NCBI GenBank assembly: GCA_029945665.1
Contig: JAQSCZ010000122.1
Location: forward strand, 1,868-65,867
Length of the DNA: 64,000 nt
Source of the DNA: a bacterium
GTDB lineage: Bacteria > Bacteroidota > Bacteroidia > NS11-12g > UBA955
Direction: 5' to 3'
The notes beneath the pieces are model-generated. The model made no database searches and had not been told where the DNA came from. It saw only the letters and a list, made by a program, of their open reading frames with translations. A program made the position numbers and the translations under genes. Each line of letters starts with the position of its first letter. Position 1 is the first letter of the stretch. This document shows, in pieces, positions 27,606-60,803 of the stretch.

Positions 27606-28520
27606 TTGATTAAAAAATCATCTGTTTTTTTCCTTTTTTGTTTATTATTTATCTATTCCTGCTCGAAAAAAGAGGAAAAGATAATACCCAACAATGTGCC
27701 CTTAAATTATGAAGATGTTCCGACTGTAAAGGTAGAAAATTATATCAATAGAATATACATCGACCTATTAGGTCGTGAACCCTTAAACATAGAAAAAATA
27801 AGAGATGTAGCATTATTGCGCGATGGTAAATTAGGGTTTGATATCAGAAAACAATTGATCACAAGATTGATGACGGATTCGATATATGTACCTGGAGATT
27901 CTTCGTATAAAAGAGCCTATTACCAAAGATTATATGACTTATCAAAGGCTCGACTTTTAGAAGGTGCTGAAGACAACGAATTTGAAAGTCAAATTGGCAT
28001 TGCTCAATTTGGACTAATTTCTTCGCGTTTATTAGGGGATTCCATTGGTGTTTTCTCAGCCATGGTAACGATTGATAGATGCAAAAATGTTTTACGGGCT
28101 AGGAGAGCCTATCAATTAGGGCTTATTGACATTAATCAAATGTATGCATATATGCTAAACAATCCAATCTATGACGTTACCAATATGAATTCTCTCAATT
28201 TTGTAAATGCATCATTTGATGATTTGTTCTTTAGATTTCCAATACGTGATGAATTTAGTATTGCATTTGATATCATCGAAACAGGAAAAGGAGGCAGTTT
28301 GTTTGGAGGGTTTGCCTCGAACAAATCGGAATATTGCCAATTGCTCGTAGATTCAAGAGAGTTTCATGAAGGTATGATTAAGTGGTGCTATTTAGCGCTG
28401 ATTGGCAGAGAGCCAACAACTCAGGAAACCTATAATTTAATGGTTGATTATTACCCAACAAAGAATCTTCAAAAAGTACAAACCCTAATATTAATGACAG
28501 ATGAGTATGCGCATTTTTAA
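27606..28520 (+). CDS. Lipoprotein with two DUF1549/PSCyt2-like 'GREP(T)' motifs
   Basis: A TTG start gives MIKKSSVFFLFCLLFIYSCSKK (lipobox). Motifs 'RIYIDLLGREPLNIEKI' and 'CYLALIGREPTTQETYNLM' resemble the R-x-x-LDL-x-GL-PPT-x-EE motif I recall for DUF1549. Confidence 0.45.
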   Translation: MIKKSSVFFLFCLLFIYSCSKKEEKIIPNNVPLNYEDVPTVKVENYINRIYIDLLGREPLNIEKIRDVALLRDGKLGFDIRKQLITRLMTDSIYVPGDSSYKRAYYQRLYDLSKARLLEGAEDNEFESQIGIAQFGLISSRLLGDSIGVFSAMVTIDRCKNVLRARRAYQLGLIDINQMYAYMLNNPIYDVTNMNSLNFVNASFDDLFFRFPIRDEFSIAFDIIETGKGGSLFGGFASNKSEYCQLLVDSREFHEGMIKWCYLALIGREPTTQETYNLMVDYYPTKNLQKVQTLILMTDEYAHF

Positions 28521-29004
28521 AACACTTTTATCAGTTTTGTTTTTAATGCTCTTTTTGCAATGCACTAAGAATAAAAACACAAACTACGAAATTGTAGAAA
28601 CAGCCTCTTATGGGGATAATTTAAATAAAGACAAAGACAAAACAAATATTGAATTTCACAGTATTTTAAGCACAAATTTATTTCAAAAACCTTCATCAAT
28701 CAATGAGTTAACAAGAACTGATCGCGTGATTCAAAGTTGTGGTGATAAAACCTTAATCAACGAAGTCATTATTAGTAATTACATGAATTCAAATCAAGTA
28801 ATTTTACCAAGCAGACGAAGAATGATTGATAGCACTGAACGTTTTGTAGAAGAAACCTATATTAGATTTTTTATTAGACGACCAACCCAAGCAGAAAAAA
28901 CTTGGTTTATTAACTTTATTAACGCCAATGCATCTAATCCAAGTTTTCGCCCTGAATTGGTGTACACGGCATTTTCCGCCTCTGATGAATATATGTTTTA
29001 TTAA
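28501..29004 (+). CDS. Secreted/lipoprotein paralogous module with a third 'RRPTQAEK' motif
   Basis: Signal 'MSMRIFKTLLSVLFLMLFLQCTKN' and motif 'TYIRFFIRRPTQAEKTWFINFI'. Overlaps the upstream gene by 20 nt in another frame. Confidence 0.4.
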   Translation: MSMRIFKTLLSVLFLMLFLQCTKNKNTNYEIVETASYGDNLNKDKDKTNIEFHSILSTNLFQKPSSINELTRTDRVIQSCGDKTLINEVIISNYMNSNQVILPSRRRMIDSTERFVEETYIRFFIRRPTQAEKTWFINFINANASNPSFRPELVYTAFSASDEYMFY

Positions 29005-29025
29005 TTTTCCCAAAAGCAACATAAA

Positions 29026-30363
29026 ATGAAAAGAAGAGAATTTGTAAAGAAAACAGCCGCTTTAACAGCCGGAAGCCTAGTAATACCCTATATATTGCCT
29101 TCAGGAAGTTTATTTGCCCAAACCAACGCCCCATTGGCCGAACATGTTGTTTACGTTTTATTCGGCGGAGGATTAAGACAACAAGATTCCATCCTTCAGC
29201 GTTACTTAGCTGATAGTCAAAATTTTAATGTAGGCGGTAATATACTCTACAACATGCTAGAAGGAGCTCCACCAACGAGCAAAATCGCCTACGGCACAAC
29301 ACCTGCTGGGCAGCCGGACGGCATTCAACCGATACCTAAAATTTTATCCCAAACTCTTCAAAAACAAGGGACCATTTTTGCCGAAATGAGAGCTATTTCT
29401 GGTGGTCATTATGGAGGGCTAAATTCACTTATAACGGGTTCAAGAGTTGAAGGACAAGGCTTAAAAGTTCGACCAATAAATCCAACTGTTTTTGAATATG
29501 CCAGAAGATTTGGTGGTTTTAAAGCCACGGATACTTGGTTTATTGGAAACACCATCGGTAACTCTGTGCCTCTTCTGAATTCAAGTAAACATCCTGATTT
29601 TGGCTTAACCTATGGTGGCAATTTTTTTGCTCCCAATATAACTTTCGGAAGCGACGGTTACGCAGCACTCTCGAATGCAAAAATTTATCATCCACAAGAA
29701 GAACTTGAACCAATGTACAAAATGAAGAACTTTTTAGATAATTCATTTAACATAAAAAAAGGCGACATGCCAGGTATCCGCAATACTGATGCTGAACGAA
29801 CTCAAATAAAAGAATTCATAGCGAATACTTTCAAAAATCAAGCTTCAGGGCAGTTGCCAATGCCCCCAGTTAGTGGAGGCGATGGCACGACAATAGGTTA
29901 TGCAGCAGAAGTTCTTAAAGTTTTCAAACCTAAACTTCTGGTCGTTAATATGAGTAATATTGATGGTTGTCATGGCAATTTTACTGGCTATTTACAAGCC
30001 ATGCACAGAGCAGATCATGCCCTTGGTTTTCTTTGGAATTATATTCAATCAATTCCTGAAATGAAAGATAAAACAATTATGTGTTTTGTTCCAGAATGTG
30101 GTAGAAATTTAAAACACAATCCCATAATCGACCAAAATGATTGGTATGGTTACGACCATGGAGACGCCAACTCTTTGCGTGTATTTGGTGGCATGGTAGG
30201 ACCAAATGTTCAGAGTAACCTTATGGTTGGATCTGAATCTAATCCCATTGGTGTAGTTACTGATTTTAATTTAACCATTGCAGAAATTTTAGGTTATAAA
30301 AGCGATGTCATGGATGCGGGATTAATTGATGGCAATGCAAAAAGTTTATTTGATAGAATCTAA
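29026..30363 (+). CDS. Tat-secreted DUF1501 family (sulfatase/alkaline-phosphatase-like fold) protein
   Basis: Twin-arginine signal 'MKRREFVKKTAALTAGSLVIP...AQ'. ~445 aa. The size and Tat leader are typical of DUF1501 proteins, which are usually paired with DUF1549/DUF1553 or DUF1800 partners. Confidence 0.6.
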   Translation: MKRREFVKKTAALTAGSLVIPYILPSGSLFAQTNAPLAEHVVYVLFGGGLRQQDSILQRYLADSQNFNVGGNILYNMLEGAPPTSKIAYGTTPAGQPDGIQPIPKILSQTLQKQGTIFAEMRAISGGHYGGLNSLITGSRVEGQGLKVRPINPTVFEYARRFGGFKATDTWFIGNTIGNSVPLLNSSKHPDFGLTYGGNFFAPNITFGSDGYAALSNAKIYHPQEELEPMYKMKNFLDNSFNIKKGDMPGIRNTDAERTQIKEFIANTFKNQASGQLPMPPVSGGDGTTIGYAAEVLKVFKPKLLVVNMSNIDGCHGNFTGYLQAMHRADHALGFLWNYIQSIPEMKDKTIMCFVPECGRNLKHNPIIDQNDWYGYDHGDANSLRVFGGMVGPNVQSNLMVGSESNPIGVVTDFNLTIAEILGYKSDVMDAGLIDGNAKSLFDRI

Positions 30364-30365
30364 AT

Positions 30366-31319
30366 ATGAATCGATACAAATATATTGGTCTAATTTTTTG
30401 TTTGTTAGCATTTGTTGCTTGCAAAAAAAATAGTAATAAAAGTAATCCATTTGATGATTGGACAACTACTAGTCGCGGTTCTGTTATGCAAGATCTAGCT
30501 ATTGATCCAAATACCATTGAAGGGCTGCATAAAAATATATTTAAACCAACTTGTGCTAACAGTGGTTGTCATGATGGAAATTTTGAACCAGATTTTAGAA
30601 GTGTTGAGAGCTCTTATAATTCTTTATTGAATCGAATGGCAACTAATACTGACCCTCAAAATGCGCAATATGCTAAGCGCGTGGTTCCAGGTGATGCTGC
30701 CAGCAGTATGTTGTTGCATAGATTAACTACATTTATTCCTGGATCACAGGGGGTGATGCCACTTTCATTAGAACCTACGAGTGATTGGGTTGTTAAGAAA
30801 AGTCAGTATTTAGAGAACATTAAAAACTGGATTAATGACGGCGCAAAAGACCAATTTGGCAACAGCGCTTTAAGTACTGATTTTCCGCCTCAAATGGCAG
30901 GAATTATAGCCTTTGCAGATGGCTCAGTAACTCCCCTTCCGCATAGTGGATATAATCCAATTGAAATTCCTTCAGGTACTTCTAGTATTAAAATTATGGT
31001 GGCTTACACCGATGACAAAACGCCAGTCAATCAATTTGGAACAACTACGCTTAATTATTCTTTAAATCCGAATAATTACTCAGGTGCCGAGACCAACATG
31101 ACAGTAGAATCTTCTCCGTTTAATACCAAAGGATTTTCAAGTAGCAATGTAGATTACTGGCACAGTGTAACGCTTTCAGTTAGTACACTTGGTGCAGCCT
31201 TAAACGATGTTTTATGGATTAGAACGCAAACCACCGACAAAGTTAATTCGCCTGTTTATATTCCTTCCATTCCCGCTGCTTTCAACACAAAAAAATATTT
31301 TTCAATTCGCATTAATTAA
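30366..31319 (+). CDS. Lipoprotein with PSCyt1-like (planctomycete cytochrome c-like) domain carrying atypical CX4CH
   Basis: Lipobox 'LLAFVACKK'. The stretch 'IFKPTCANSGCHDGNFEPDF...RVVPGDAASSMLLHRL' parallels the PSCyt1 pattern (C..CH...VVPG.PE.SLL) but has four residues between the cysteines (30552-30572). Confidence 0.5.
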   Translation: MNRYKYIGLIFCLLAFVACKKNSNKSNPFDDWTTTSRGSVMQDLAIDPNTIEGLHKNIFKPTCANSGCHDGNFEPDFRSVESSYNSLLNRMATNTDPQNAQYAKRVVPGDAASSMLLHRLTTFIPGSQGVMPLSLEPTSDWVVKKSQYLENIKNWINDGAKDQFGNSALSTDFPPQMAGIIAFADGSVTPLPHSGYNPIEIPSGTSSIKIMVAYTDDKTPVNQFGTTTLNYSLNPNNYSGAETNMTVESSPFNTKGFSSSNVDYWHSVTLSVSTLGAALNDVLWIRTQTTDKVNSPVYIPSIPAAFNTKKYFSIRIN

Positions 31320-31783
31320 TGAAAAACAAATTTTTATATCGTCGATTTAATTTGCTTCCTATCTGCATTCTTATATTTCTAAGCAGTTGTAAAAAAGATG
31401 ACTCATTGAGTGGCAATAGCAAAGTGCCATTTATAAAAATGCTCGATGTTTCTTCAACAACAATTTTGCAATTTAAAGATAGTTTAGTCATTCGATTTGA
31501 ATACACAGATGGTGATGGTGATATCGGAGAACTAAATCCTGATGAAAATGATTTACAGATAAAAGATAAAAGACTGAGTAAAGCTGACTATTATTTTATA
31601 AAACCTTTATCTCCTCCGGGATCTGATATCAAGACAAAAGGTATTATAGCAGTCCAAATGAAAAACACCTTTTTATTAGGCACTGCCAACAGCGAGACTA
31701 CTACTTTTGAATTGAAGCTCAAGGATAGAGCAGGCAATTGGAGCAATAGCATCATTACGCCAATAATTACCATTACAAAATAA
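31319..31783 (+). CDS. Small lipoprotein with DGDGDIG motif (paralog of 13562..14080)
   Basis: Lipobox 'LIFLSSCKKD'. Contains 'FEYTDGDGDIGELNPDEND' (31508-31528). Its start overlaps the upstream stop (TAATG) and it ends 1 nt before the adhesin gene. Confidence 0.5.
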   Translation: MKNKFLYRRFNLLPICILIFLSSCKKDDSLSGNSKVPFIKMLDVSSTTILQFKDSLVIRFEYTDGDGDIGELNPDENDLQIKDKRLSKADYYFIKPLSPPGSDIKTKGIIAVQMKNTFLLGTANSETTTFELKLKDRAGNWSNSIITPIITITK

Positions 31784-34700
31784 TTGAATACTTTTTTCAA
31801 ATATCGTACATTATTGGGTGCTTTTTTAGATAACAAGATAGCGCTTTTTCTGCTGTCATTACTAAGTATACTACCGACATATTTAGCAGCACAAACTACT
31901 TATAAAATGAGTAACAATAAGGTTTATGACTGCAGAGGAAAGTTAATTGATAGCGAGGGTAATAAAGTAAATACAAGCTGGTATGCCAGCAATGAGGATT
32001 TTATATTCACAATTTCTGTGAGTGGTGCCAGTAAAATTAATATCAAATTTACAAATCCATTCAATGTCGAAGCAGGCTCAGATTTTTTAAAGGTATACAG
32101 TGGTAAGGATACTTTTTCAGGATTCATAAAAAAGTATGATAACAACAACAAACCTTCAGGTACTATTTCTGTAACAGATAGTTGTATCACATTTTATTTT
32201 CATTCTGATAAATATGTCAATGGCGATGGATTTGAACTCAGCTGGGAAGCAAAAATAACTTCCGTTCCTCAGCCAAAATTTACACCCATTACTAATCCTA
32301 ATTGCAACACTAATAAAATTCGCATTATACTTGATCAAAAATTTAATTGCGACTCAGTGAAGGCAAAAAATTTTAAATTATCAGGCACCTTAACAACTGC
32401 CGTGAGCAATGCCGTTGGCGTTGGGTGTGATGGTAAAAATGAAAGCAATACTTTTGACATTTCATTTGCTTCAGCCTTAAATCAAAGTGGTAATTATGTA
32501 CTTGATTTTAATTCTACTTTCAAAGATCAATGTGATAGTATTTGGAAAATAAACGCAAAATTAAATTTCAAAATTACAGATTGCCCCATCAAGGTGGTAC
32601 TTAAAAGTACAAAAGATACCCTCTGCACAGGTGCATGTGCAACACTTACAGCAACAATAACAGGTGGAAATTCAGCAAACTACACTTACACTTGGTTTAG
32701 CGGCACCTTAACGGGCAAACCACCTCATATTATTTGCCCGACTATTAACACAAGATACATTTTGGAAGTTTCGGATGGCGTGTCTATACCCGGGCGTGAC
32801 ACGATAGATATTATTGTTTTGACACCTCCTGTTGCGCAAAATGACACAACGGTTTGTCAATCGAGTGGACCATTTAATTTAATGGCCAATCCCACCGGTG
32901 GCAAATGGTCGGGCACTGGAATCACAAATGCAAGCAATGGAACTTTTAATCCATCTATTTCTGGCAGCGGTATTTTTAATATTACTTACCAAAATGGAAA
33001 ATGTAGTGATATTGTTGTTGTTACCGTTAAAGCAATAAATGCAGGACCACCAAATGCCGCATGCCCAAGCAGTGCAGCCTTTATGGTTAGTAATTTTTCA
33101 CCAACAGGAGGTACTTGGAGTGGACCCAATATTAATGCTTTAGGAATTATTACACCTCCTGCCAGTATAGGAACTTTTCAAGTAACATACACATGGAATG
33201 GTTGTACGGCCAAAAAAGACATCAATATAGATGGTATAAGTATAAAAAAATACGATACAATTTGTAAATCTGTTCCTTATGATACAATTTTATTTACACC
33301 TGCAGGCGGAAATTGGACTGGCCCAGGAATTTCTAATACACGATTAGGGATTAGTATACCTTACAATGCTGGTGCTGGAAATAAACTATATATATACACC
33401 ATTAATGGTTGTAAAGACACGCTTAAAAGATTCATTAAAGATGTTGATGCAAGATGGGATGAAATTGCTTGTCCAGATGCCGGACAAAGAACCTTGCCCG
33501 CTGGTATACCTACTGGTGGATTATGGTCTGGTAAAGGTATTTTCGATCCTGTCAATGGGATTTTTGATGCAGATAGTTTTCGGGTACCCGGTCAAAGCAC
33601 TTTTGTTCAAGTTAATTTAACCTATACAACCTTATCAGGCTGCAAAGACGATAAGATTATGTACCTGCGATACTCCCGCTTTTATAAAGATACTGTCAAA
33701 AATTGTGTCACGGATACGAGTTATTATTTGCGCTATCAATATGTTTTTAATGACCCTTGGAATTTGCTTTTTACTGGCAGTAATGCTATAATTGGCAATT
33801 CAATTTACTACCAAAAATTTAGTCCATCACTTGCTGGGAGAGGTACATATCATCAAATAATTGGAGATGGCAATGGCTGCAAAGACACAATTATAATTCA
33901 AATTTATCCAAGAGCCAAAATCCAAAATGATACTATTTTATGTATAGCAGATAATCCTTATCAGTTATACAATGCCGAAAAGAAAGGAACTTTTTCAGGC
34001 AAAGGCATAACAAATGGTGTTACGGGTATCTTTAATCCAGCTTTGGCAGGTTCAGGCACACATTTAATCATGTATAATCAGCCAGGTAAATGTCAAGATA
34101 CAATAAGGATTAAGGTCAATGCATTACCCATTGTGAAAATCAATGGATTGTCGCAATTCTATTGCTTTAGGGATACTATTATAACTGCTAATTTAACCCC
34201 TATAGGTGGCATATTTACTGGAGCAGGCACGAATGGAAATACATTTAATCCTAGAACTGCGGGCACCGGAATCCACAGAATGAAGTATGTTTTTGGAACA
34301 GGAAAGTGTATCAATCAAGATGTTTTAGATATTGAAATAGGAGATACTTTAAAACTAGACTTAATTAGCGATAAAGATACCATATGTATTGGGACAACAG
34401 TAACTTTAAATACCAAAGCTACAGGTGGCAGCAATAATTATGATTTAACTTGGAGCAGTGGACCAACCAATGTCAGTGCTATTTTCATTTCACCTAAAAA
34501 AACCACATTGTACACTGCAACGTTAAAAGATGGTTGTAGTGACTCTGTAGTTAAGCAAAAGTTAATATATGTGCATCCCCAAATGTATAGTAGCAGCAGT
34601 ACTAGTCCAATTCAATGCTATGGTAATCAAGGTTTCATAAATCTAAAAATGAATGGAACTGGTCCTTTTTCATATCTTTGGAATACGATTCCACCACAAA

Positions 34701-35344
34701 CCAATGCTATAATAAATGCCCCTGTCAATAATACTTACAAAGCAACCATAACCAATACTTCCACTGGTTGTAAATATGATACAAGTCTGCAAATTCCCGG
34801 ATACAACGCGATAAGAGCCTATTTTACTTTCTCTCCAAATGACAGATGTTTATACAGTAACAATGCTGAATTGCAGATTATTAATCTAAGTGATGGCGGC
34901 ATAACCGGAACCTGGGATTTTGGAGATGGCACAATTATTCCTTATGATCCAGCTACCAATCCAAGTCACTTATACGACGGATTAAAAGAAAATTATAAAG
35001 TAAAACTAACGATATCTAATAGTGGTAATTGTATTGATAGTTTTTATGTTAATATCTGTGTAATTGATACCGTTACTATCATATTGCCTACAGCATTTAC
35101 CCCAAATGATGACGAGATGAATGATATTTTTAGAATTGAATCCACTTCTATTTCTAAATCGACAATGGCTATTTTTAATAGATGGGGTGAAAAAGTATTT
35201 TACAGTGAAGATTCAAAAATTGGGTGGAATGGAACCTACCAAGGGAAACCATGCCCTACAGACTATTATGTTTATTATATTAGCTATAAAGGAAAAAAAA
35301 CTGCAACACGTTACACAAAAGGTGTCTTGTTTTTAATACGGTGA
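31784..35344 (+). CDS. Giant T9SS type-B CTD (gliding-motility-associated C-terminal domain) cell-surface protein with N-terminal CUB-like domain, ~9 Cys-bracketed Ig-like repeats and a PKD domain
   Basis: Signal peptide. CUB-like domain 'CRGKLIDSEG...SGFIKKYDNN...GDGFELSWEA' (~31930-32260). Repeats of the form C-x(8-12)-P-x-GG-x-W[ST]G-x-GI-x(15-30)-C. PKD domain 'GTWDFGDGTIIPYDPATNPSHLY'. C-terminal 'LPTAFTPNDDEMNDIFRI...IFNRWGEKVFYSED...GWNGTYQGK' is the type-B/CHU_C sorting domain. Confidence 0.8.
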   Translation: MNTFFKYRTLLGAFLDNKIALFLLSLLSILPTYLAAQTTYKMSNNKVYDCRGKLIDSEGNKVNTSWYASNEDFIFTISVSGASKINIKFTNPFNVEAGSDFLKVYSGKDTFSGFIKKYDNNNKPSGTISVTDSCITFYFHSDKYVNGDGFELSWEAKITSVPQPKFTPITNPNCNTNKIRIILDQKFNCDSVKAKNFKLSGTLTTAVSNAVGVGCDGKNESNTFDISFASALNQSGNYVLDFNSTFKDQCDSIWKINAKLNFKITDCPIKVVLKSTKDTLCTGACATLTATITGGNSANYTYTWFSGTLTGKPPHIICPTINTRYILEVSDGVSIPGRDTIDIIVLTPPVAQNDTTVCQSSGPFNLMANPTGGKWSGTGITNASNGTFNPSISGSGIFNITYQNGKCSDIVVVTVKAINAGPPNAACPSSAAFMVSNFSPTGGTWSGPNINALGIITPPASIGTFQVTYTWNGCTAKKDINIDGISIKKYDTICKSVPYDTILFTPAGGNWTGPGISNTRLGISIPYNAGAGNKLYIYTINGCKDTLKRFIKDVDARWDEIACPDAGQRTLPAGIPTGGLWSGKGIFDPVNGIFDADSFRVPGQSTFVQVNLTYTTLSGCKDDKIMYLRYSRFYKDTVKNCVTDTSYYLRYQYVFNDPWNLLFTGSNAIIGNSIYYQKFSPSLAGRGTYHQIIGDGNGCKDTIIIQIYPRAKIQNDTILCIADNPYQLYNAEKKGTFSGKGITNGVTGIFNPALAGSGTHLIMYNQPGKCQDTIRIKVNALPIVKINGLSQFYCFRDTIITANLTPIGGIFTGAGTNGNTFNPRTAGTGIHRMKYVFGTGKCINQDVLDIEIGDTLKLDLISDKDTICIGTTVTLNTKATGGSNNYDLTWSSGPTNVSAIFISPKKTTLYTATLKDGCSDSVVKQKLIYVHPQMYSSSSTSPIQCYGNQGFINLKMNGTGPFSYLWNTIPPQTNAIINAPVNNTYKATITNTSTGCKYDTSLQIPGYNAIRAYFTFSPNDRCLYSNNAELQIINLSDGGITGTWDFGDGTIIPYDPATNPSHLYDGLKENYKVKLTISNSGNCIDSFYVNICVIDTVTIILPTAFTPNDDEMNDIFRIESTSISKSTMAIFNRWGEKVFYSEDSKIGWNGTYQGKPCPTDYYVYYISYKGKKTATRYTKGVLFLIR

Positions 35345-35369: not shown

Positions 35370-35903
35370 TTGCTTAATTTTGAGAACATTATGAAATTCA
35401 AAAGCATTTTAAACAAATCATTAATGGTATTTGGCATACTATTAATTCTCATACAATTCGTTGGAACTGAAAAAAATGAAAGTGATATAAAAACAAATAG
35501 TATTGCCAATAAATATGCTATCCCAAACAACATTCAACTAATACTTACGACAGCTTGCTATGACTGCCACAGCAATAAAACAATTTACCCATGGTATGCT
35601 AAGTTACAGCCTGTAGCTTGGTGGTTAAACGACCACATAGTAGAAGGTAAGAGCAAATTTAACTTTGATGAATTTACTAGCTACCCGTTGTATAGACAAT
35701 ATCACAAATTAGAAGAAGTGGTTGAAGAAGTGGAGGAAGGTGAAATGCCGCTTTCTTCTTATACCATCATTCATAGGAATGCAAATTTAACAGATGGTCA
35801 AAAAACTGAATTAATTAACTGGGTAAAAGGAATTCGCACGACTATGGAAACCACTTATCCTGCAGATAGCCTTATAAATCCTAAAAAAAGGAAACAATCT
35901 TAA
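35370..35903 (+). CDS. Heme-binding-domain (CXXCH) small secreted/membrane-anchored protein
   Basis: N-terminal hydrophobic anchor. 'TTACYDCHSNKTIYPWYAKLQPVAWWLNDHIVEG' (CYDCH at ~35557-35571) resembles the Bacteroidetes haem-binding domain family. Confidence 0.55.
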   Translation: MLNFENIMKFKSILNKSLMVFGILLILIQFVGTEKNESDIKTNSIANKYAIPNNIQLILTTACYDCHSNKTIYPWYAKLQPVAWWLNDHIVEGKSKFNFDEFTSYPLYRQYHKLEEVVEEVEEGEMPLSSYTIIHRNANLTDGQKTELINWVKGIRTTMETTYPADSLINPKKRKQS

Positions 35904-59252: not shown

Positions 59253-60803
59253 ATGAAGAAAATTTTAATGATCGCTCTCTTTGCTATAGCAATGCAAACA
59301 AGAGCACAAAAACCAACTTGGGCAGAAGATGTTGCATGCATTGTATACAGCCACTGCACTAGTTGTCACAACCCCAATGGCTCAGGTCCATTTTCTCTAT
59401 TAGATTTTAATGATGCCGTTAACCGAAGCAACAGCATTAAATTTCAGGTGAGTAACAAAACTATGCCGCCTTGGCCAGTCGATAATCATTATCGAAAAAT
59501 GGCACACGAGAGAAGTTTATCTGATGTGGAAGTGAATACCATTTTAGCCTGGATAAACAATGGCATGACCCAAGGTAATATGGCCAATGCCCCTACTCCA
59601 CCGGTGTATTCATCGGCATTGGTAATTGCCAATCCTGATCTAAAATTAAAACTACCAACTTATACCGTTCCTACCATCACACAAGATTTATATAGATGCT
59701 TTGTAATGCCTACAGGCCAATCTATTCAAAAGTTCATTACAGGAATTGAAATAATTCCTGGAAACAAAAGCATCGTTCACCATGCACAAGTATTTTACGA
59801 TACCACTGGTGCAACAACGACTTTAGATGCCAATGACCCAAATCCTGGTTATTCTTCGGCTGGAGGAGTAGGTACGGATGCCGCAGTATTATTGGGCACT
59901 TGGGTGCCAGGTGCTAGTCCTATTTTCGTGCCTGCTGGCATGGGTAAGCGCTTGCCCCCCACAGCAAAAATAGTGGTTCAAATTCATTACCCTGAATATG
60001 CAAGCGGGCAAACAGATTCAACAAAAGTGAATTTTCTGTTTACCTCAAGTAGCGTTAGAAATATTAGCGATGCGCCTATTTTAAACCATTCAACTACCAT
60101 GAAGGATGGGCCATTATTTATTCCAAAAAATACTGTTAAAACCTTTCATGAAGAATTTTTTGTGCCACTTAACGCCACCATTTTAAGCATTGGACCGCAT
60201 GGTCACTTACTCTGTAAAAGTATGAAAGCCTATGGCATTACTTTAGCTGGCGACACCATCAAATTGATAAATATTCCAAAATGGGATTTTCATTGGCAAG
60301 GTTCTTATGATTTTAAACAACCCATTAAAATTCCAATAGGTACGACACTACATGGCGAAGCTACATACGATAACACGGCTGCAAATTCAGAAAACCCAAA
60401 TGACCCACCTCAAGATGTAAGCTTAGGCGAAGCTACAACAGATGAAATGATGTTGTTTTATTTCTCTTATTTAGCCTATAAATCGGGTGATGAAAATATT
60501 GTAGTGGACACCTTTCAACATCAACCACACCATAACAATTGCACTAGTGCATATAACACCTCTATTAGTACTCTAGACATTTCAAGTGATTTAGTGTATC
60601 CGAATCCTAGTAATGGTTTATTTCATTTAAAAGTGCAAAACAATAACGCATTTGAGATAATTGTTTATAACCATTTGGGTCAAAAAGTATGGAATGGCAA
60701 AAATACCACTGAGATAGATTTATCAGCGTTTGGAAATGGTATTTACAATGTAAGTATCATTCAAAACAATAATATTTACAATAGCAAGTTAGTAAAGGAA
60801 TAA
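59253..60803 (+). CDS. Secreted c-type heme (CXXCH) + copper type II ascorbate-dependent monooxygenase-like (PHM/DBH fold) protein with T9SS type-A CTD
   Basis: Signal 'AMQTRAQ'. 'CIVYSHCTSCHNPNGSGPF' is a PSCyt1-like CXXCH (59355-59369). CuH-like H176/H177/H245 ('VHHAQVFY', 'QIHYPEY'). CuM-like 'GPHGHLLC' plus 'TTDEMMLFYFSY'. C-terminal 'VYPNPSNGLFHL...IIVYNHLGQKV...NGIYNVSII'. Confidence 0.6.
   Translation: MKKILMIALFAIAMQTRAQKPTWAEDVACIVYSHCTSCHNPNGSGPFSLLDFNDAVNRSNSIKFQVSNKTMPPWPVDNHYRKMAHERSLSDVEVNTILAWINNGMTQGNMANAPTPPVYSSALVIANPDLKLKLPTYTVPTITQDLYRCFVMPTGQSIQKFITGIEIIPGNKSIVHHAQVFYDTTGATTTLDANDPNPGYSSAGGVGTDAAVLLGTWVPGASPIFVPAGMGKRLPPTAKIVVQIHYPEYASGQTDSTKVNFLFTSSSVRNISDAPILNHSTTMKDGPLFIPKNTVKTFHEEFFVPLNATILSIGPHGHLLCKSMKAYGITLAGDTIKLINIPKWDFHWQGSYDFKQPIKIPIGTTLHGEATYDNTAANSENPNDPPQDVSLGEATTDEMMLFYFSYLAYKSGDENIVVDTFQHQPHHNNCTSAYNTSISTLDISSDLVYPNPSNGLFHLKVQNNNAFEIIVYNHLGQKVWNGKNTTEIDLSAFGNGIYNVSIIQNNNIYNSKLVKE

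Follow-up and report, generated by a model that had tools for sequence, protein, structure and literature searches.

Background

PSCyt1 (PF07635, 'Planctomycete cytochrome C') is an exported domain that, to our knowledge, owes its annotation as a cytochrome to its sequence only. What PSCyt proteins do is not known (PMC5615132). In Planctomycetes and Verrucomicrobia, genes for PSCyt1, PSCyt2 and PSD1 occur in modules together with DUF1501 (Kamneva et al. 2012, PMC3542564). A second described system is FoxE from Rhodobacter ferrooxidans SW2 (PDB 5mab, 5mvo), a dihaem c-type cytochrome and the closest solved relative of the protein analysed here; so far as the title of entry 5mab and the reference list of PMC9250108 describe it, FoxE is a putative Fe(II) (iron) oxidase.

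Both haem domains of FoxE carry a canonical haem motif, and PSCyt1 carries CXXCH. Haem sites with the longer spacing CX4CH are known to us almost only from multihaem proteins (cytochrome c3, hydrazine dehydrogenase) and from engineered variants. They are an accepted, rare variant (PMC11492766). Haem 3 of the anammox hydrazine dehydrogenase is a CX4CH site, rare and diagnostic for that enzyme (PMC6469936), in bacteria whose cytochrome maturation is of System II (PMC4222556). Among the papers searched, none joins CX4CH with Bacteroid*.

Here we analyse a lipoprotein gene, g4, within a 64-kb stretch of DNA from an uncultured Bacteroidota bacterium (the window, meaning all 64,000 nucleotides). We propose, with a probability of about 0.7, that a monohaem c-type cytochrome, in kind like PSCyt1 and FoxE, forms the N-terminal domain of its product, a lipoprotein of the periplasmic side, and that it binds haem through a CX4CH motif.

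Results

The g4 gene and its product

The features of g4, all on the forward strand, are as follows.

30366..31319, + strand: g4, 317-aa lipoprotein, ATG start; N-terminal helical cytochrome-c-like domain and C-terminal beta-sandwich
30366..30422, + strand: signal peptide with lipobox LAFVA-C19, read from sequence
30498..30881, + strand: cytochrome-c-like domain, about residues 45-172, four helices
30552..30572, + strand: CX4CH, Cys63-Ala-Asn-Ser-Gly-Cys68-His69, proposed haem attachment site and proximal ligand
30681..30725, + strand: VVPGDAASSMLLHRL, the V-x-P-G-x4-S-x-L-x2-R motif common to PSCyt1 and FoxE
30756..30761, + strand: Met131-Pro132, invariant in 27/27 diverse domains, proposed distal (sixth) haem ligand
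30828..30851, + strand: WINDGAKD, C-terminal helix of the cytochrome-c-like domain; W155, I156 and G159 invariant
30891..31316, + strand: C-terminal beta-sandwich (Ig-like), pLDDT >90, weak Foldseek Ig-like matches

The codons tgt gct aac agt ggt tgt cat (30552..30572) encode C-A-N-S-G-C-H in the frame of the g4 ORF, which is intact. Codons and frame agree exactly with a preliminary description of this DNA, which had placed a CX4CH motif here; the other motifs it had quoted for the protein are likewise present, with VVPGDAASSMLLHRL at 30681..30725 followed by GVMPL and then WINDGAKD. This is the only haem motif of the protein, and g4 is the sole ORF of at least 110 aa with a CX4CH in the window.

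The N-terminus, MNRYKYIGLIFCLLAFVAC, contains the lipobox, whose Cys19 is invariant in 35 aligned homologues, and a twin-arginine motif is absent from the signal peptide. Sec export and lipidation are implied by the lipobox signal peptide, and this predicted route (Sec/lipoprotein, not Tat) fits what haem c maturation requires.

AlphaFold2 modelled full-length g4 with a pLDDT of 86.4 and the cytochrome-c-like domain alone with a pLDDT of 88 and a pTM of 0.84; loop 65-67 has a pLDDT below 50 in the full-length model. The modelled N-terminal helix stops at the first cysteine of the motif, and Met-Pro is placed in a loop about 9 residues ahead of the C-terminal helix. This predicted topology is consistent with that of class I cytochromes c.

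Conservation of the CX4CH spacing

The search for homologues of g4 returned 761, and the best 120 of them (41-100% identity) were inspected for the motif. C[AS]N[SA]GCH was found in 118, the other two being fragments of 226-227 aa without any cysteine. A further 148 representatives of 50%-identity clusters comprise 139 with CX4CH, one with CX5CH and eight fragments whose match starts downstream of the motif. The check on lineage conservation that the preliminary description had suggested came out in its favour, with the spacing kept in 118/118 close and 139/140 distant full-length homologues. That description had also allowed for a sequencing indel, expected to leave orthologues all with CXXCH; the full-length homologues have CX4CH and, in one case, CX5CH. 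The family is large: the full-length g4 profile matched at least 870 50%-identity clusters among the matches listed (874 representatives), a scan of species-representative genomes, by patterns that include the motif, gave at least 533 stretches coding for a relative, and a g4 homologue is encoded at 84/84 genomic loci fetched. The 80 best genomic matches are all from metagenome-assembled genomes; complete genomes with the family include OZ257142.1 and OZ253959.1. Because the spacing is kept in hundreds of species, the CX4CH of g4 is a real, selected variant and not a sequencing error.

Within the motif, C63, C68 and H69, together with the adjoining D70 and G71, are invariant family-wide, and C63, C68, H69, M131 and P132 do not vary even among homologues of about 35% identity. 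The inner four residues are free to change (CANSGCH, CAVPGCH, CAQPACH, CANPTCH and others). No positions of the domain are better conserved than C, C, H and M-P in a set of more than 250 cluster representatives, where neighbouring residues drift; V106, P108 and S114 of the VVPGDAASSMLLHRL region are invariant in 27 diverse domains. Directly after the motif comes an invariant H-D-G-x-F-E-P-D-F-R stretch that neither PSCyt1 nor FoxE has. His55 and Met115 were also considered as haem ligands and were discarded, since neither is conserved in the wider family. Judged by alignment, the family retains exactly the residues that a His/Met haem c site requires.

Remote homology to PSCyt1

An hhalign comparison of 251 family domains with 120 real PF07635 proteins gave a probability of 94.9%, an E-value of 4.2e-8 and a score of 53.8, against E-values of 0.08-0.7 and scores of 9.6-15.8 for reversed and shuffled controls. 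The significant part of the match lies downstream of CX4CH. In the alignment the VVPGDAASSMLLHRL stretch falls on PSCyt1 VPGxPExSLL, Met131-Pro132 on MPP and WINDGAKD on WVKMGAPD; an extended, low-confidence part sets C63 and C68-H69 on the PSCyt1 C..CH with a two-residue gap.

In Pfam scans, where the PF07635 gathering score is 22 bits and a genuine PSCyt1 protein scored 68.5 bits, g4 had no PSCyt1 match at E up to 1 and 35 full-length family members had none at E up to 10. Sub-threshold PSCyt1 matches appeared in 2/27 diverse g4 domains (best E 0.0073), among which the other weak Pfam matches were to Cytochrom_C and Cytochrome_CBB3. No cytochrome model rose above threshold in Pfam and NCBIfam scans of g4 and 35 homologues, nor in Pfam scans of the 27 domains; a faint match to TIGR03806, a dihaem cytochrome family, covered residues 89-132 (E 0.096). 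By these profile comparisons the g4 domain is a remote homologue of PSCyt1 and not a Pfam member, because no member of the family reaches the threshold. The term "PSCyt1-like" in the preliminary description thus stands for homology and fails for membership of PF07635.

The two families share the same order of motifs (helix, Cys...Cys-His, V-P-G-x-P-x-x-S-x-L, M-P, I-x-x-W-I-x-x-G-A-x-D), both are exported, and the neighbours of g4, like those of PSCyt1, include a Tat-exported protein and, judged by sub-threshold matches, a PSCyt2/PSD1-like one. They differ in their haem motif, CXXCH in PSCyt1 and CX4CH in the g4 family, and in the region between CH and VPG, which is unrelated (HDGxFEPDFR...SxYxxL in g4, GGLRLD...GGDSGP in PSCyt1). 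The g4 domain belongs to a separate lipoprotein, joined to a beta-sandwich, whereas the PSCyt1 domain is fused to PSCyt2/PSD1; the g4 family is found in Bacteroidota and PSCyt1 in the Planctomycetes-Verrucomicrobia-Chlamydiae superphylum.

Comparison with FoxE and other solved structures

A profile search of all PDB sequences with the g4 domain returned one protein, FoxE (5mab), at E 1.6e-4, and both FoxE haem domains align to the domain profile. The VVPGDAASSMLLHRL region was aligned to FoxE IIPGDPEASKVFQHL, Met131-Pro132 to RMPP and WINDGAKD to WIKQGAK, so that the CH, IIPGDPEAS, RMPP and WIKQGAK stretches of FoxE coincide with motifs of the g4 family. Identity between the two proteins is about 20%. 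FoxE has two domains with a canonical haem motif in each, whereas g4 has a single CX4CH, and neither the lipid anchor nor the beta-sandwich of g4 is seen in FoxE.

Foldseek with the model of the g4 domain gave no significant match in the PDB, the FoxE entry ranking first at E 0.42, which is not significant. With the full-length model it gave only weak Ig-like matches to the C-terminal domain (E at least 2e-3), and the full-length profile gave only a spurious signal-peptide match against the PDB.

Precedents for the motif

CGTAGCHD and CATAGCHD hold haem in solved Desulfovibrio cytochrome c3 structures (2cth, 1j0o), where covalent haem at CX4CH is proven by crystallography. The c3 pattern C-[AG]-T-A-G-C-H-D nearly equals the C-A-x-[SA]-G-C-H-D of the g4 family, whose versions include CANSGCHD, CANAGCHD, CATSGCHD and CALAGCHD. 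The likeness is confined to the local motif. Cytochrome c3 is a class III multihaem protein with bis-His ligation and a fold unrelated to that of g4. It is absent from the PDB profile and Foldseek results for the g4 domain, and a class III assignment of g4, which has a single haem motif, was rejected. The most fitting reading is that the two converged on a four-residue loop that works. Haem 3 of hydrazine dehydrogenase resembles g4 in being a natural CX4CH site, but that enzyme is an octahaem, HAO-like protein of an unrelated family.

A conserved six-gene exported module

The g4 gene lies fourth in a series of six genes (27606..35344), of which the other five are listed here.

27606..28520, + strand: g1, 304-aa lipoprotein with DUF4214-/PSCyt2-/PSD1-like helical repeats, syntenic at 75/84 loci
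28501..29004, + strand: g2, 167-aa lipoprotein, DUF4214-like, syntenic at 76/84 loci
29026..30363, + strand: g3, 445-aa protein with twin-arginine signal, probably of the alkaline-phosphatase superfamily, syntenic at 81/84 loci
31319..31783, + strand: g5, 154-aa lipoprotein, present at 79/84 loci
31784..35344, + strand: g6, 1186-aa secreted protein with CUB and Ig/SprB/PKD repeats and a CHU_C type IX secretion signal, syntenic at 77/84 loci

Genes g1-g6 form a strictly syntenic exported module, common in freshwater, soil and wastewater Bacteroidota, and Pfam coverage is absent for 5/6 of its proteins. Among 31 orthologues of g1 all matches were sub-threshold (PSCyt2 in 15, best E 1.3e-4; PSD1 in 5; DUF4214 in 21), and for g2 DUF4214 was sub-threshold in 5/5 orthologues. 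The N-terminus of g3 is MKRREFVKK, with R3 and F6 invariant; its orthologues matched Pfam TAT_signal in 5/33 cases and Phosphodiest in 3/33 (best E 2.2e-4), and we take g3 to be probably an alkaline-phosphatase-superfamily protein. A DUF1501 match was sought by Pfam in the 33 orthologues of g3 and was not found. Direct hhalign comparisons with single canonical sequences from the related contig L086 were not significant either for g3 as DUF1501 (E 0.27) or for g1 as PSCyt2/PSD1 (E 0.1), and these assignments were dropped. The tightest partner of g4 is g5, which has no family match, overlaps the g4 stop by one base at its start, and stays beside g4 even at loci without g1-g3. Pfam matches of g6 are to CHU_C (5e-17), CUB (1.7e-7) and PKD (2.4e-5). 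Some related long-read contigs (L085, L086) contain frameshifted genes, none of them at the g4 homologue.

A scan of 86 loci for further CX3-5CH proteins near the module yielded only chance motifs in spurious ORFs, and the conserved module contains no haem maturation gene (84 loci).

The gene context of g4 loosely echoes the modules of PSCyt1/PSCyt2/PSD1 with Tat-DUF1501. In both, a Tat-signal protein stands beside a protein with a cytochrome motif and beside helical proteins of PSCyt2/PSD1 type (putatively so for g1), every product is exported, the gene arrangement is kept, and no function has been assigned. Unlike in the modules of Planctomycetes and Verrucomicrobia, the parts here are separate lipoproteins, the Tat protein g3 has no DUF1501 match, and the module has two extra members, g5 and g6, the latter encoding the type-IX-secreted CUB protein.

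Canonical haem motifs elsewhere in the window

The preliminary description had noted two genes with canonical CXXCH, and they are indeed the sole CXXCH ORFs of at least 110 aa in the window: CYDCH at 35370, in an ORF that matches Pfam Haem_bd at E 2.7e-46, and CTSCH at 59253, in an N-terminal cytochrome-c-like stretch. Two such proteins in the window lead one to expect c-type cytochromes in this organism. The Haem_bd gene at 35370 was excluded from the g4 system because it adjoins it in only 2/84 loci. When the CXXCH domain of 59253 was compared with the g4 family by hhalign, the match was confined to the W-I-N-x-G helix (E 0.001).

Discussion

We suggest the following picture of g4. The protein would be exported unfolded via Sec and then lipidated at Cys19. 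One haem would be held covalently by Cys63 and Cys68 of the fixed CX4CH, which may be viewed as the canonical CXXCH of its relatives with a two-residue insertion. Its iron would be bound proximally by His69 and distally by Met131 of the invariant Met-Pro. Its partners would be the five other exported products of the conserved six-gene module, within which the cytochrome would probably serve as an electron-transfer partner. System II is the cytochrome maturation expected in Bacteroidota. The preliminary description had stressed that CX4CH needs compatible maturation, a fair point for which System II offers a precedent in anammox bacteria (PMC6469936, PMC4222556). Anammox bacteria and Wolinella have a second haem lyase whose WWD motif is altered.

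Among other readings, the likeliest is one that the preliminary description had also put forward: a non-haem derivative of a cytochrome c domain, whose invariant Cys, Cys, His and Met would make a disulphide and/or hold another metal such as copper or zinc, or would be kept for structure. The insertion departs from the CXXCH of FoxE and, where visible, of the 120 fetched PSCyt1 proteins; the cytochrome HMMs all remain below threshold for the g4 family; the model has low confidence in loop 65-67 (pLDDT <50); and copper, too, is typically bound by Cys, His and Met. Lost cofactor sites, however, normally decay, and here C, C, H and M-P are the most conserved positions over more than 250 cluster representatives. 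The residues kept are exactly those of a haem c site, ordered and spaced as in haem-binding relatives, and a cytochrome c3 CX4CH with nearly identical inner residues holds haem in solved structures. We consider a non-haem derivative unlikely.

A protein that binds haem and is no electron carrier could be a sensor, a catalytic protein or a haem-handling one, perhaps with one thioether or another distal ligand. The invariant H-D-G-x-F-E-P-D-F-R would suit a family-specific function near the haem, and the function of the module is itself unknown. Against this, the invariant M-P implies His/Met six-coordination, an arrangement typical of electron carriers in which no coordination site stays free, and FoxE, the closest solved relative, is described as a redox protein (putative iron oxidase). 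We consider a role other than electron transfer quite improbable. Finally, a sequencing or assembly indel, or a chance motif in an ordinary CXXCH protein, can be dismissed, given the intact reading frame of g4, the same spacing in 118/118 close and 139/140 distant full-length homologues from many independent assemblies and sources, and the relatives encoded in at least 533 stretches of species-representative genomes.

The preferred reading remains a monohaem c-type cytochrome. For the family as a whole the claim is broader, and we hold it with somewhat better than even confidence: that the family is large, natural and unannotated, that it consists of monohaem, His/Met, class-I-like c-type cytochromes with an obligatory CX4CH, and that it is set in a six-gene extracytoplasmic module which would be the Bacteroidota counterpart of the PSCyt/DUF1501 systems.

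Conclusions

The practical stake is modest: the finding amounts to a good annotation and a biochemical candidate and brings no new principle. If the reading is true, a single-haem family with a fixed CX4CH would be a clean natural system for the study of haem attachment, redox potential and lyase recognition. It would likewise offer a natural test bed for the handling of extended motifs by the System II haem lyase and for the role of PSCyt-type modules. The PSCyt/DUF1501 modules have had no known function since 2004, and the finding on g4 opens a first way into a probable distant relative of theirs, the strictly conserved exported module of six genes.

Results

CX4CH is fixed in a family of Bacteroidota lipoproteins

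The gene g4 encodes a lipoprotein whose N-terminus reads from the sequence as a signal peptide and lipobox. The preliminary description placed a CX4CH motif in it, and the codons bear this out exactly.

30366..31319, + strand: g4 ORF, 317 residues, first residues MNRYKYIGLIFCLLAFVAC; starts 2 bases past the preceding gene's stop codon
30552..30572, + strand: CX4CH motif, Cys-Ala-Asn-Ser-Gly-Cys-His
30681..30725, + strand: VVPGDAASSMLLHRL, downstream of the motif
30756..30758, + strand: Met131, within GVMPL
30828..30851, + strand: WINDGAKD

Homologues of g4 number 761 in a 90%-clustered collection (E <=1e-3) and 874 in a library of 50%-cluster representatives, 198 of the latter with E <1e-30. 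The pattern C[AS]N[SA]GCH is present in 118 of the 120 best homologues (41-100% identity), the other two being fragments of 226-227 aa with zero cysteines. Among 148 further representatives, 139 carry CX4CH, eight are fragments whose match begins past profile position 74, and one, the distant member P0267, has five residues separating its cysteines (CX5CH, CGSQGACH), either a real further extension or an assembly error. That member apart, both cysteines, the histidine and the four-residue spacing are constant across the family; the inner four residues vary (CANSGCH, CAVPGCH, CAQPACH, CANPTCH, CALSGCH and others). Scanning a single genome from each species gave at least 533 stretches encoding a relative, the best 80 of which are all from metagenome-assembled Bacteroidota (Bacteroidia, Flavobacteriales, Chitinophagales, Saprospiraceae, Vicingaceae, Cryomorphaceae).

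Aligning 27 domains of less than 52% pairwise identity leaves C63, C68, H69, D70, G71, P75, V106, P108, S114, M131, P132, W155, I156 and G159 invariant (full-length numbering). His55 and Met115 seemed conserved in close relatives but vary across the wider family, so His69 and Met131 form the only plausible axial ligand pair on this alignment. Residues 70-78 (30573..30599), D-G-x-F-E-P-D-F-R right behind the haem motif, are near-invariant and have no counterpart in PSCyt1 or FoxE; HDGxFEPDFR beside the haem motif is family-specific.

Scanning ORFs of at least 110 aa reveals only two further haem-c-type motifs in the window, both canonical CXXCH as previously described. CYDCH lies in the ORF at 35370..35903, which matches Pfam Haem_bd (PF14376, E 2.7e-46). 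CTSCH lies at the N-terminus of a 516-aa product (59253..60803), in a cytochrome-c-like stretch with MPP and WINNG that scores slightly below threshold for Haem_bd (23 bits) and Cytochrom_C (21.1 bits). In an unusual fusion, this stretch precedes monooxygenase domains of the copper type II (dopamine-beta-hydroxylase-like) kind and a tail for type IX secretion.

The domain is a remote relative of PSCyt1 and FoxE

No Pfam or NCBIfam model matches g4 or its homologues at threshold. By the own test of PSCyt1 (PF07635), g4 is not a member, failing on both defining counts, model score and CXXCH. Homology was tested at the level of alignments: 251 g4-family domains were compared by hhalign with 120 aligned proteins carrying precomputed PF07635 annotation, giving a probability of 94.9% and a score of 53.8. 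The label "PSCyt1-like" in the preliminary description thus holds as remote homology (E 4.2e-8, against 0.08-0.66 for controls) but not as Pfam membership. The controls, one reversed and eight column-shuffled alignments, scored 9.6-15.8. The match spans V-P-G-x4-S-x-L, M-P and I-x2-W-I-x2-G-A-x-D; when extended, it sets Cys63 on the first cysteine of PSCyt1 and Cys68-His69 on the PSCyt1 Cys-His; a gap of two residues lies in between, PSCyt1 having canonical CXXCH and the g4 family CX4CH. The Pfam model, at only 59 positions, spans that section of the domain in which the family has a sequence of its own, HDGxFEPDFR...SxYxxL, and this, we think, is why it misses the family. Scanned singly, the 27 diverse domains gave sub-threshold PSCyt1 matches in two (best E 0.0073), along with Cytochrom_C (0.012) and Cytochrome_CBB3 (0.05).

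Against all PDB sequences the domain profile finds one protein only, the dihaem cytochrome FoxE of Rhodobacter ferrooxidans SW2 (5mab, 5mvo; E 1.6e-4). The alignment takes in both haem domains of FoxE, the better one matching the family motifs in register through TTCH..., IIPGDPEASKVFQHL, RMPP and FAWIKQGAK. The AlphaFold2 models are confident (full-length pLDDT 86.4; domain alone pLDDT 88, pTM 0.84), and Foldseek with the domain model ranks FoxE top (E 0.42) and photosystem II cytochrome c550 third (E 4.9), neither significant. In the models an N-terminal helix is predicted to finish at Cys63, and Met-Pro to sit in a loop about nine residues ahead of a long C-terminal helix. An N-terminal helix ending at the first cysteine and a Met-Pro loop before the C-terminal helix are the class I cytochrome c layout. 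Between the cysteines, pLDDT drops below 50 at residues 65-67 of the full-length model; a beta-sandwich with only weak Ig-like Foldseek matches is modelled for residues 176-317.

CX4CH haem sites in other proteins

Reviews accept CX4CH among variant haem motifs (PMC11492766), and haem 3 of anammox hydrazine dehydrogenase occupies such a site (PMC6469936) in bacteria that mature cytochromes by System II (PMC4222556). Solved chains of Desulfovibrio cytochrome c3 have one CX4CH site, KCGTAGCHDS (2cth, 1a2i) or KCATAGCHDN (1j0o), close to the family's C-A-N-S-G-C-H-D and its variants CANAGCHD, CATSGCHD and CALAGCHD. These sites show that a near-identical sequence is compatible with two thioether bonds. 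Since the c3 fold is unrelated to the g4 domain, we read the likeness as convergence on a loop fitting the haem edge. The literature searched, which leaves out most subscription journals, makes no mention of CX4CH together with Bacteroid*.

g4 belongs to a conserved six-gene module

g4 occupies fourth place in a compact run of six genes (27606..35344; intergenic distances from overlaps to 21 bases), which is found in the same order and strand across 84 loci of other Bacteroidota genomes.

Synteny of the module genes (loci of 84)
Gene Loci
g1 75
g2 76
g3 81
g4 84
g5 79
g6 77

Missing genes fall mostly at contig ends. The two exceptions are L059 (6875-12057), with g4-g6 behind unrelated upstream genes in place of g1-g3, and L080 (3747-5211), with g4-g5 alone; the g4-g5 pair is the most stable unit. 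Flanking genes vary by lineage. The Haem_bd gene at 35370, directly downstream, was considered as a module part; just 2 of 84 loci, both in close relatives, have it next to the module. It therefore lies outside the module, to which it is probably unrelated.

All six products are predicted from sequence to be exported. Lipoboxes occur in g1, g2, g4 and the small lipoprotein g5. The N-terminus of g3 is MKRREFVKK, R3 and F6 being invariant, and 5 of 33 orthologues give Tat-signal matches. In g6, a CUB protein, a signal peptide is combined with a CHU_C domain for type IX secretion. For five of the six products Pfam offers no family. Orthologues of g1 recurrently match, below threshold, DUF4214 (21/31), PBS linker (18/31), PSCyt2 (15/31, best E 1.3e-4) and PSD1 (5/31), and all five g2 orthologues match DUF4214. 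Phosphodiest, an alkaline-phosphatase-superfamily model, matches 3 of 33 g3 orthologues (best E 2.2e-4), DUF1501 none of the 33; g5 has no family match. A repeated helical motif common to g1 and g2 (27606..29004), L-x-G-R-E-P / R-R-P-T-x-x-E ... D-E-Y, scores weakly against the DUF4214, phycobilisome linker, PSCyt2 and PSD1 models, a hint that these families may have a common repeat.

The module resembles in outline the planctomycete arrangement of PSCyt1, PSCyt2-PSD1 and DUF1501 described by Kamneva et al. (PMC3542564), whose function is called unknown (PMC5615132) and whose genes are adjacent in the canonical locus L086; the kinship of g1 and g3 is putative, as hhalign against single canonical L086 sequences gave no significant match for g3 with DUF1501 (E 0.27) or for g1 with PSCyt2/PSD1 (E 0.1). 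In two planctomycete-type contigs (L085:10001-12599, L086:3144-7188) the PSCyt1, PSCyt2 and PSD1 parts appear as short individual genes that overlap slightly; these look like assembly frameshifts, not true gene splits.

Discussion

The g4 domain shares ancestry with, and probably works like, PSCyt1/FoxE-type cytochrome domains; we regard its family as a sister family, new and without annotation, in which CX4CH is fixed. As its sequence implies, g4 would be exported by Sec and lipidated at Cys19. The host maturation system would then join one haem covalently to Cys63 and Cys68, with His69 and Met131, on conservation and alignment, as likely axial ligands. More speculatively, electrons may be exchanged with a module partner, most likely the Tat-exported g3 enzyme.

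A non-haem derivative, whose cysteines, histidine and methionine serve a disulphide or another metal, is unlikely: it would explain poorly why just the set of residues that haem c needs has been selectively kept. Possible, and less probable again, is a domain that binds haem and is not an electron carrier. Because the spacing is kept across homologues, representatives and the species scan, the sequencing indel for which the preliminary description proposed lineage conservation as a check is excluded, and CX4CH as an artefact is refuted.

These findings overturn nothing in current understanding, and the bound haem is a claim that we infer. The conserved six-gene module is a good target, and an obligate CX4CH family, putatively monohaem, in hundreds of species is noteworthy to cytochrome specialists.
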